Below are positions 46,762-49,207 of a stretch of DNA of 64,000 nt, piece after piece. Origin of the DNA: Escherichia coli (GTDB taxonomy: Bacteria > Pseudomonadota > Gammaproteobacteria > Enterobacterales > Enterobacteriaceae). The translations under genes and the position numbers were made by a program. Location: assembly GCF_045037415.1 (NCBI RefSeq), contig NZ_CP173438.1. One strand, written 5' to 3'. How positions within the stretch are numbered: the stretch's first letter is position 1; each line of letters opens with the position of its first letter. The notes under the pieces are model-generated. The model searched no databases and was not told where the DNA came from. It saw only the letters and a program-made list of their open reading frames with translations.

Positions 46762-46963
46762 CAAGCTGACGGCAGCAATTCACTGGAAACTAATGTATTG
46801 TTGCTATGAATGATCTTCCGTTGCAGAGGTTCGCGCGGCTAATGAGAGGCTTTACCCACATAGAGCTGGGTTAGGGTTGTCATTAGTCGCGAGGATGCGC
46901 AGAAGATCGGGTATTAACACCAGTACCGTAAGGTACTGTCTAAGAAAGAGAAAGGATATTACA

Positions 46964-49099
46964 TTGCTTAATCCGATCGTTCGTAAATTCCAGTACGGCC
47001 AACACACCGTGACTCTGGAAACCGGCATGATGGCTCGTCAGGCTACTGCCGCTGTTATGGTTAGCATGGATGACACCGCGGTATTTGTTACCGTTGTTGG
47101 TCAGAAAAAAGCCAAACCAGGTCAGGACTTCTTCCCGCTGACCGTTAACTATCAGGAGCGTACCTACGCTGCTGGTCGTATCCCGGGTAGCTTCTTCCGT
47201 CGTGAAGGCCGCCCAAGCGAAGGCGAAACCCTGATCGCGCGTCTGATTGACCGCCCGATTCGCCCGCTGTTCCCGGAAGGCTTCGTCAACGAAGTTCAGG
47301 TTATCGCCACCGTGGTTTCTGTTAACCCGCAGGTTAACCCGGATATCGTCGCGATGATTGGTGCTTCCGCAGCACTGTCTCTGTCTGGTATTCCGTTCAA
47401 TGGCCCGATTGGTGCTGCCCGTGTAGGTTACATCAATGACCAGTACGTACTGAACCCGACTCAGGACGAACTGAAAGAGAGCAAACTGGACCTGGTTGTT
47501 GCCGGTACAGAAGCTGCCGTGCTGATGGTTGAATCTGAAGCTGAACTGCTGAGCGAAGACCAAATGCTGGGCGCAGTGGTGTTCGGTCATGAACAACAGC
47601 AGGTTGTTATTCAGAACATCAATGAACTGGTGAAAGAAGCCGGTAAACCGCGTTGGGATTGGCAGCCGGAGCCGGTAAACGAAGCGCTGAACGCGCGCGT
47701 TGCTGCGCTGGCTGAAGCTCGTCTGAGCGATGCTTACCGCATCACCGACAAACAAGAGCGTTATGCGCAGGTTGATGTCATCAAATCTGAAACCATCGCG
47801 ACACTGCTTGCTGAAGACGAAACCCTGGACGAAAACGAACTGGGTGAAATTCTGCACGCTATCGAGAAAAATGTTGTTCGTAGCCGCGTACTGGCCGGCG
47901 AACCGCGTATCGACGGTCGTGAAAAAGATATGATCCGTGGTCTGGATGTGCGTACTGGTGTGCTGCCGCGTACTCACGGTTCTGCGCTGTTCACCCGTGG
48001 TGAAACGCAGGCGCTGGTTACCGCAACGCTGGGTACTGCTCGTGACGCGCAGGTTCTTGATGAACTGATGGGCGAACGTACCGATACCTTCCTGTTCCAC
48101 TACAACTTCCCTCCGTACTCCGTAGGCGAAACCGGCATGGTCGGTTCTCCGAAGCGTCGTGAAATTGGTCACGGTCGTCTGGCGAAGCGCGGCGTGCTGG
48201 CAGTAATGCCGGATATGGACAAATTCCCGTACACCGTACGTGTTGTGTCTGAAATCACCGAATCCAACGGTTCCTCTTCTATGGCTTCCGTGTGCGGCGC
48301 GTCTCTGGCGCTGATGGACGCCGGTGTGCCGATCAAAGCTGCCGTTGCGGGTATCGCAATGGGTCTGGTGAAAGAAGGCGACAACTACGTTGTACTGTCT
48401 GACATTTTGGGCGACGAAGATCACCTGGGCGATATGGACTTCAAAGTTGCGGGTTCTCGTGACGGTATCTCTGCATTGCAGATGGATATCAAAATTGAAG
48501 GTATCACCAAAGAGATCATGCAGGTTGCACTGAACCAGGCTAAAGGTGCGCGTCTGCATATCCTGGGCGTAATGGAACAGGCGATCAATGCGCCGCGCGG
48601 TGATATCTCTGAGTTCGCTCCGCGTATCCATACCATCAAGATCAATCCAGACAAGATCAAAGACGTTATCGGTAAAGGCGGTTCTGTAATCCGTGCTCTG
48701 ACCGAAGAAACTGGCACTACCATCGAAATCGAAGATGACGGTACTGTGAAGATCGCAGCGACCGACGGCGAGAAGGCGAAAAACGCTATTCGTCGTATCG
48801 AAGAGATCACTGCAGAAATCGAAGTAGGCCGCGTCTACAATGGTAAAGTGACCCGAATCGTTGACTTTGGCGCATTTGTTGCCATCGGCGGCGGTAAAGA
48901 AGGTCTGGTCCACATCTCTCAAATCGCTGATAAACGCGTTGAGAAAGTGACCGATTACCTGCAGATGGGTCAGGAAGTACCGGTGAAAGTTCTGGAAGTT
49001 GATCGCCAGGGCCGTATCCGTCTGAGCATTAAAGAAGCGACTGAGCAGTCTCAACCTGCTGCAGCACCGGAAGCTCCGGCTGCTGAACAGGGCGAGTAA
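46964..49099 (+). CDS. pnp: Polynucleotide phosphorylase
   Basis: ORF 46877-49099; start placed at the TTG (46964) giving [21 protein letters not shown], 711 aa. KH and S1 domains at the C-terminus. Confidence 0.9.
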
Positions 49100-49207
49100 G
49101 GTTGCCATTTGCCCTCCGCTGCGGCGGGGGGCTTTTAACCGGGCAGGACGCCTTGTTAGCAACCGGGAACAGGACGTTCATTCAACCGTGGTCTTCGGGA
49201 GTGGGAA

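Follow-up and report, generated by a model that had tools for sequence, protein, structure and literature searches.

Does the minus-strand open reading frame (ORF) of 740 amino acids that lies opposite pnp encode a protein, or is it a by-product of the codons in which pnp itself is written? The ORF is located at positions 46940 to 49162 of the window (the whole 64,000-nucleotide [nt] stretch of DNA analyzed here, a segment of the Escherichia coli chromosome that runs from gltB to lpoA); it starts from TTG 49162, or from ATG 49108 if it is read as a protein of 722 amino acids, and it is the longest unannotated ORF in the window. The stop-free run opposite pnp comprises 745 codons (46943 to 49177) and spans the whole of pnp, triplet on codon. 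Positions 1 to 50000 of the window correspond base for base to positions 522950 to 572949 of NZ_AP018784.2 (strain SK1144), and because the sequences are identical, the RefSeq annotation of NZ_AP018784.2 was carried over directly. According to this annotation, the coding sequence of pnp (polynucleotide phosphorylase [PNPase]; plus strand, 711 codons) extends from 46964 to 49099, with rpsO at 46448 to 46717, nlpI at 49208 to 50092, and deaD at 50272 to 52161. In the ORF list, the sense pnp frame is found at 46877 to 49099 and, with 740 amino acids, has the same length as its antisense ORF. A 3-kb query around the antisense ORF yielded matches in 5425 of 5426 complete E. coli genomes, several of them 100% identical. 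Gene-finding programs have a "shadow" state for the strand opposite a coding region, and we use the term shadow for such antisense frames here.

Several other genes in the window carry shadows of the same kind. Opposite ftsH (31199 to 33133), a minus-strand run of 560 codons (31430 to 33109; listed ORF 31427 to 32914, 495 amino acids) is in register with the sense codons. The genes nusA (40606 to 42093) and infB (42118 to 44790) are in a common frame, and one minus-strand shadow of 494 codons (40795 to 42276; listed ORF 40792 to 42261, 489 amino acids) crosses from nusA into the start of infB. Two further in-register minus-strand blocks lie opposite infB, at 42280 to 42927 (216 codons) and 43477 to 44532 (352 codons), where the listed ORFs are blocks of 214 to 234 amino acids. 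The minus-strand gene gltB, which is truncated by the window start and ends at 3550, is faced on the plus strand by three successive in-register blocks of 279, 245, and 226 codons between 1064 and 3319 (listed ORFs 1139 to 1903, 1907 to 2641, and 2750 to 3322, with 190 to 254 amino acids). The coordinates and lengths that the preliminary description of this DNA had given for the antisense ORFs of pnp, ftsH, nusA-infB, gltB, and infB were all reproduced by the ORF listing. Two in-register shadows that were absent from that description represent the same phenomenon: one opposite argG (plus strand, 38386 to 39519, 378 codons) and one opposite deaD (minus strand, 50629 to 51552, 308 codons).

Altogether, the window contains 23 antisense stop-free runs of ≥150 codons, and 18 of them share the register of the gene that they face, where one-third would be expected (binomial P = 1.3e-5). 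The description had held that the frames are in register in every case, and this applies to pnp, ftsH, nusA-infB, and the gltB blocks (offset 0) but not to the ORF of 183 amino acids at 43344 to 43895 opposite infB, which has an offset of 2 and belongs to an out-of-register run (43347 to 43958) between the two in-register infB blocks. Four further antisense runs in the window (150 to 204 codons) are likewise out of register. For pnp, a frame out of register with the sense codons would have spoken against an origin in sense codon usage, and the frame was found to be in register.

In a frame with this register, every antisense triplet reads a single sense codon in reverse complement, and antisense TAA, TAG, and TGA can therefore arise only from sense TTA, CTA, and TCA (termed antistop codons herein). 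These three are nonpreferred Leu and Ser codons in E. coli, and translational selection would be expected to purge them from strongly expressed genes. The pnp gene contains 52 Leu and 31 Ser codons, with not one antistop codon among them (0 TTA, 0 CTA, and 0 TCA), compared to a window mean of 19.8 per 1000 codons; because these 83 positions happen to include no antistop codon, the whole complement of pnp is open. The earlier claim that pnp lacks all three codons in its 711 codons therefore stands for the allele in the window but does not hold in general, as the pnp gene of K-12 carries one CTA. In random sequence, an open run of 745 codons has a probability of about 3e-16, and under the window-average synonymous usage, the absence of antistop codons from pnp has a P value of 1.8e-5. 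The pnp shadow is real and nonrandom.

To relate the antistop codons to codon bias, a codon adaptation index (CAI) was computed for each gene without Leu, Ser, Met, and Trp, which keeps the tested codons out of the predictor; its weights followed the Sharp and Li 1987 table, and sense genes are called highly expressed here on the grounds of their codon bias. Among 65 window genes, the share of TTA, CTA, and TCA in the Leu and Ser codons dropped as the CAI rose (Spearman rho = −0.62, p = 5e-8), and pnp, with a CAI of 0.659 on its non-Leu/Ser codons, ranks highest among the long genes in the window. This correlation and the zero count in pnp back the view that the shadows report an avoidance of the three rare codons. 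A different explanation would be base composition alone, i.e., a mutational bias against A/T-rich, A-ending triplets in which translational selection has no part. Within the genome, the antistop share correlated with the CAI but not with A3 (rho = 0.09) or GC3 (rho = −0.16) in the remaining codons, and the GC3 of pnp (0.50) is just the window median. Because a correlation with A3 and GC3 is lacking, the driver within the genome is codon-specific preference and not base composition.

The next issue is whether pnp avoids antistop codons more strictly than its codon bias predicts. Logistic regression fitted to the remaining genes of the window predicted 4.2 antistop codons in pnp and gave a probability of 0.013 for none. 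Such a mildly low value relative to the window-only reference would fit noncoding selection against antisense stops beyond codon bias, for instance, through ribosome cover of spurious antisense transcripts, with consequences for Rho termination or RNA decay. The window holds few strongly biased genes, and a larger K-12 reference was therefore used, composed of 114 annotated genes that lie in three regions of K-12 (DH1) with ribosomal-protein, EF-G/EF-Tu, rpoBC, and dnaK loci; the window-only P value is superseded by this sample with its ribosomal-protein, elongation factor, and RNA-polymerase genes. In the K-12 genes with a CAI of 0.65 to 0.75, the pooled antistop share was 11/665, or 1.65% of Leu and Ser codons, from which a zero count in 83 codons has a probability of 0.25. 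When peers were matched on the CAI of the codons beyond 80 (body-matched peers), pnp, ftsH, and nusA had P values of 0.17, 0.51, and 0.14, respectively. Only about 0.2 thus remains for pnp under matched peers, versus about 1e-5 under genome-average codon usage. The gltB gene had fewer antistop codons than its CAI-matched peers (P = 0.0055), which may be due to its high GC3. Two genes of the K-12 sample cast longer shadows than pnp: rpoB, in which 1 of 1342 codons is an antistop codon (open run of 991 codons), and rpoC, with 4 in 1407, three of them within the first 32 codons (run of 844 codons). In the same sample, tufA and tufB have 0 in 394, and dnaK has 2. The stop avoidance of pnp is ordinary for its codon-bias class.

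The position of the remaining antistop codons along the genes follows a similar logic. Gene starts have a relaxed codon bias and are A/T-rich. In high-CAI genes, antistop codons made up 34% of the Leu and Ser codons at codons 2 to 6, 7.7% at codons 7 to 19, 4.3% at codons 20 to 79, and 1.8% beyond codon 80, and in many ribosomal-protein genes of the K-12 sample, the sole antistop codon is located at positions 2 to 6. Because the residual antistop codons concentrate in the first few codons, shadows extend over almost all of the gene and stop close to where the sense frame begins. Over their first 80 codons, ftsH (0.42), infB (0.36), and deaD (0.38) have a lowered CAI on the other amino acids; the first 80 codons of pnp have a CAI of 0.75, without a 5′ dip, and since pnp lacks this dip, its shadow is without any stop.

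The six antistop codons of ftsH, at codons 5, 17, 38, 77, 638, and 641, are clustered, which might likewise be taken as a sign of noncoding selection on the antisense frame. A uniform permutation of synonymous Leu and Ser codons gave P = 0.0002 for this clustering at the gene ends; this value was discarded as evidence, as its null ignores the 5′ rare-codon gradient, and the body-matched null gave P = 0.51. The two antistop codons at 638 and 641 are accounted for post hoc only. References matched for both CAI and position leave no residue for pnp, ftsH, or nusA that selection beyond codon bias would have to explain. More generally, a null model for stop avoidance should match its genes on the codon bias that goes with expression as well as on the relaxation of that bias at 5′ ends.

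A rival proposal is a genuine antisense overlapping gene, whose product of 722 to 740 amino acids would be made from an antisense transcript starting in the pnp-nlpI spacer, comparable to the cases proposed for enterohemorrhagic E. coli (EHEC) and Pseudomonas. The great length of the ORF speaks for it, as do antisense overlapping genes claimed in E. coli (PMC9927249 and PMC7103648), and a candidate start is present: a Shine-Dalgarno sequence is absent before TTG 49162, but the first in-frame antisense ATG (49108 to 49106) is preceded by GGAGGG 4 nt upstream. We considered this motif as a ribosome-binding site and reread it as the minus-strand copy of the 3′ arm of the pnp terminator hairpin. 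This intrinsic-terminator-like hairpin (plus strand, 49111 to 49136) follows directly after the pnp stop codon and consists of a 9-bp stem (49111 to 49119 paired with 49124 to 49132), a 4-nt loop, and a subsequent UUUU, with −24.4 kcal/mol; its stem is kept in other genera via compensatory changes. The in-frame ATG together with GGAGGG is present in E. coli, Escherichia albertii, and Citrobacter, and the ATG is lost in Pseudescherichia vulneris, Enterobacter sp. Bisph1, and Kluyvera. The only candidate for a conserved start and ribosome-binding site on the antisense frame is thus an arm of a conserved hairpin next to an ATG that is itself not conserved.

Other signals expected of a gene did not appear either. 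A consensus scan of the minus strand from 46300 to 49700 found no sigma-70-like site. The antisense translations had no match in NCBIfam and none in Pfam at an E value of ≤0.001, and the exact antisense sequences of 740, 722, 495, and 489 amino acids were absent among 15 billion predicted proteins, with the pnp antisense ORF not once predicted as a protein in that collection. A literature search for an antisense gene in pnp, ftsH, nusA, or infB retrieved no report; pnp, ftsH, nusA, infB, and gltB are also unnamed in a survey of E. coli overlapping genes and its supplements, which is a weak point against a gene, as the tables may use locus tags.

Variation within E. coli bears on the same proposal. 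Codon 242 of pnp (plus strand, 47687 to 47689) is CTG in the window strain and CTA in K-12, where the antisense frame consequently reads TAG. The K-12 61-mer that spans this codon had exact matches in 1612 of the 5426 complete E. coli genomes, so that at least 30% of them carry the interruption, the exact match giving a lower bound. Six divergent E. coli pnp alleles differed from the window allele at 40 to 69 codons, nearly all of these differences being synonymous in the sense frame and nonsynonymous in the antisense frame. The common CTA242 allele of K-12 is a convenient natural control and argues against a phenotype from an antisense stop at a sense-synonymous site. The frequency of this stop-creating allele also speaks against selection that would keep the antisense frame open for noncoding reasons.

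For a comparison across species, 78 full-length pnp loci were collected with a PNPase query from contigs representing one genome per species. Antistop codons numbered 0 in 4 orthologs, 1 to 3 in 11, 4 to 19 in 20, and 20 to 56 in 43. The only orthologs with none were those of E. albertii, Citrobacter werkmanii, P. vulneris, and Escherichia sp. ESNIH1; in the 11 species with 1 to 3, the positions vary, with TCA at codon 395 recurring. An interrupted antisense frame is therefore found in K-12 and ≥30% of the E. coli genomes as well as in the majority of other genera, with interruptions at varied positions in most Enterobacterales, and this comparison, which had been put forward as a check on the codon-bias reading, counts against a gene.

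The same data contain an argument for base composition, as the number of antistop codons in the orthologs tracks GC3 (rho = −0.87), and two high-GC Aeromonas species have a nearly open antisense frame independently. In Vibrio and Photobacterium, CTA makes up 22 to 63% of the Leu codons of pnp (mostly about half), and TTA is almost absent, a pattern that is codon specific and not compositional; the pnp genes of Vibrio contain 20 to 36 antistop codons, mostly CTA. Because CTA is so heavily used for Leu, the antisense frame in Vibrio and Photobacterium is full of TAG, and the shadow disappears where one of the three antistop codons is preferred. The open frame is not conserved but tracks the codon preference of each species. 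Base composition fails as the sole cause within the genome and stands as the between-species component of the codon-bias explanation; as a complete account without translational selection, we regard it as very unlikely.

Selection on the antisense frame was assessed by the Nei-Gojobori method against 18 Enterobacterales, with infB and deaD, which have a similar bias, as controls. Against Citrobacter, dS was 0.47 for pnp, 0.39 for infB, and 0.40 for deaD, and over the 18 species, pnp was about equal to the controls. The antisense frame of pnp had a dN/dS of 2 to 3, a value shared by the antisense frames of both control genes, and identity to Citrobacter was 74% for the antisense amino acids, compared to 97% for PNPase. 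In terms of dS and antisense dN/dS in the 18 Enterobacterales, no constraint from a second frame was seen opposite pnp. A dS that is not lowered, together with this antisense dN/dS, speaks against an overlapping gene, and a dS that is the same as that of its peers also leaves little room for noncoding selection against antisense stops, which we consider exceedingly improbable. This judgment takes into account that Mir et al. 2012 and Moshensky and Alexeevski 2019 both saw more long antisense ORFs than modeled and that a slight resistance to synonymous change was seen opposite dnaK.

The neighboring nlpI gene showed low synonymous divergence. The experimentally mapped deaD promoter (−10 element TATGAT at 49421 to 49426) and its 838-nt 5′ untranslated region (UTR) lie inside nlpI, and this overlap accounts in part for the low divergence.

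Taken together, the ORFs opposite pnp, ftsH, nusA-infB, and gltB are, with high confidence, noncoding frame −1 by-products of sense codon bias. The dependence on the CAI, the matched peers, the TAG in K-12, and the antisense dN/dS of 2 to 3 all support this reading, which the preliminary description had proposed as a codon-bias footprint in place of overlapping genes. Expression-linked translational selection is reportedly what drives codon bias in general, a view associated with Ikemura and with Sharp and Li, and it probably drives the bias here as well. The overlapping-gene proposal is already largely refuted by the evidence, and we see next to no chance that it is correct; the pnp antisense frame is most likely untranslated. 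In strains in which the frame is intact (the window strain, O157, and E. albertii), antisense RNA from nlpI-side read-through or spurious initiation might occasionally be translated from ATG 49108, yielding a young, unconstrained, and strain-variable protein, an idea that we consider highly doubtful. If it were true, the occasionally translated frame would provide material from which a gene could arise de novo and would not be a functional gene.

How does the pnp shadow compare with known antisense ORFs? The claims for pop, asa, ano, laoB, and olg1/olg2 in EHEC and Pseudomonas aeruginosa reportedly rest on transcriptome sequencing (RNA-seq) or ribosome profiling (Ribo-seq) signal, promoters, phenotypes, or purifying selection (PMC7103648, PMC6294744, PMC5960689, PMC5810103, and PMC8850804). 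Like the pnp shadow, these ORFs are embedded antisense in an annotated gene. Unlike them, the pnp ORF is neither conserved nor constrained, has no promoter-like site and no conserved start, and carries a common natural nonsense allele. At least ano lies in frame −3, where openness is not explained by codon bias.

A closer counterpart is the ORF of >1800 bp opposite dnaK, which was once annotated as an NAD-specific glutamate dehydrogenase and is included in Pfam as PF10712 (Moshensky and Alexeevski 2019, bioRxiv 10.1101/724807). Its translation is under no purifying selection, and its homologs are found solely opposite the sense gene; the conclusion drawn there for dnaK agrees with that of Mir et al. 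2012, namely that codon usage produces such frames (bioRxiv 10.1101/724807). With over 600 amino acids in frame −1, this ORF spans a conserved, highly expressed gene, and the pnp shadow behaves alike; unlike the dnaK antisense ORF, the pnp shadow belongs to no Pfam or NCBIfam family, and none of the 15 billion proteins has its exact sequence. The length of a frame −1 ORF alone is no evidence for overlapping genes.

The class to which both belong has been described before. Long frame −1 ORFs were reported by Merino et al. 1994, and according to Silke 1997, long ORFs in frame −1, unlike in the other alternative frames, are a statistical outcome of the codons used by very highly expressed E. coli genes (both as summarized by Mir et al. 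2012, PMC3454372). These frame −1 shadow ORFs share the register of the sense gene, are stopped only at TTA, CTA, or TCA, and are longest opposite highly expressed genes. Between them and the pnp shadow we see no material difference: it is one more instance, in a well-studied region of E. coli, of a phenomenon that is already known, and it adds no new biology.

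The pnp sense frame (+) is open upstream of its annotated start, ATG at 46964, as far as a TTG at 46877, and the sense ORF counted from that TTG (46877-49099) is 740 amino acids long in the ORF listing; the antisense ORF opposite pnp is equally long by coincidence. In one E. coli genome (NZ_OZ040555.1), the counterpart of window positions 46500-49500 (rpsO-pnp-nlpI) contains an IS4-family insertion, and the match to this interval consists of two pieces with a span of 4.4 kb.

Inside nlpI, a sigma-70-like site (TTTATA-16-TATGAT, 49399-49426, plus strand) lies at the same place as the experimentally mapped promoter of deaD, whose -10 element, TATGAT, was mutated by Ojha and Jain in 2020 (PMC7430678). 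The deaD transcription start site precedes the start codon of the gene by 838 nt (PMC7430678); with that ATG at 50272, the site falls at about position 49434 in the window.

Synonymous divergence (dS, Nei-Gojobori estimates) in nlpI (49208-50092) is unusually low for a weakly codon-biased gene (CAI of 0.37, computed on amino acids other than Leu, Ser, Met, and Trp). Compared with E. albertii, dS is 0.048 for nlpI, 0.195 for pnp, 0.232 for deaD, and 0.305 for truB; compared with Citrobacter, it is 0.20 for nlpI and 1.26 for truB. The low divergence extends over the whole gene, with a minimum in the final quarter. Since the deaD promoter and the 838-nt 5' untranslated region (UTR) overlap nlpI codons 76 to 294, they can account for part of the low dS, but they are not the explanation for the low divergence at codons 1 to 75.

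Among the other genes of the window, gltB (partial, 1-3550) has antistop codons (TTA, CTA, or TCA in the sense frame, each giving an in-register antisense stop) at 9 of 172 body Leu/Ser positions, versus 11.2% in CAI-matched peers (P = 0.0055). This shortfall is modest and is probably explained by composition: of the sixteen genes in the window whose antistop share is lowest, gltB ranks second highest in GC3 (0.60) and second lowest in A3. The yhbX region (36001-38000) has a GC content of 0.42, compared to about 0.51 in its flanks, and yhbX contains 21 antistop codons and has a very low CAI (0.27), consistent with a horizontally acquired gene adjoining a tRNA-Leu gene.

Among the pnp orthologues, codon 395 is a recurrent antistop codon, found in at least six Enterobacterales genera (loci L007, L008, L009, L022, L024, and L042); it probably represents the ancestral condition, with a later replacement in the Escherichia/Citrobacter lineage. 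In Vibrio and Photobacterium pnp (loci L043, L055-L065, L068, L073, and L076), CTA makes up 22 to 63% of the Leu codons, about half in most species, and TTA is nearly absent. In this highly expressed gene, CTA seems to be among the Leu codons that Vibrio and Photobacterium prefer, whereas in E. coli it is a non-preferred codon.
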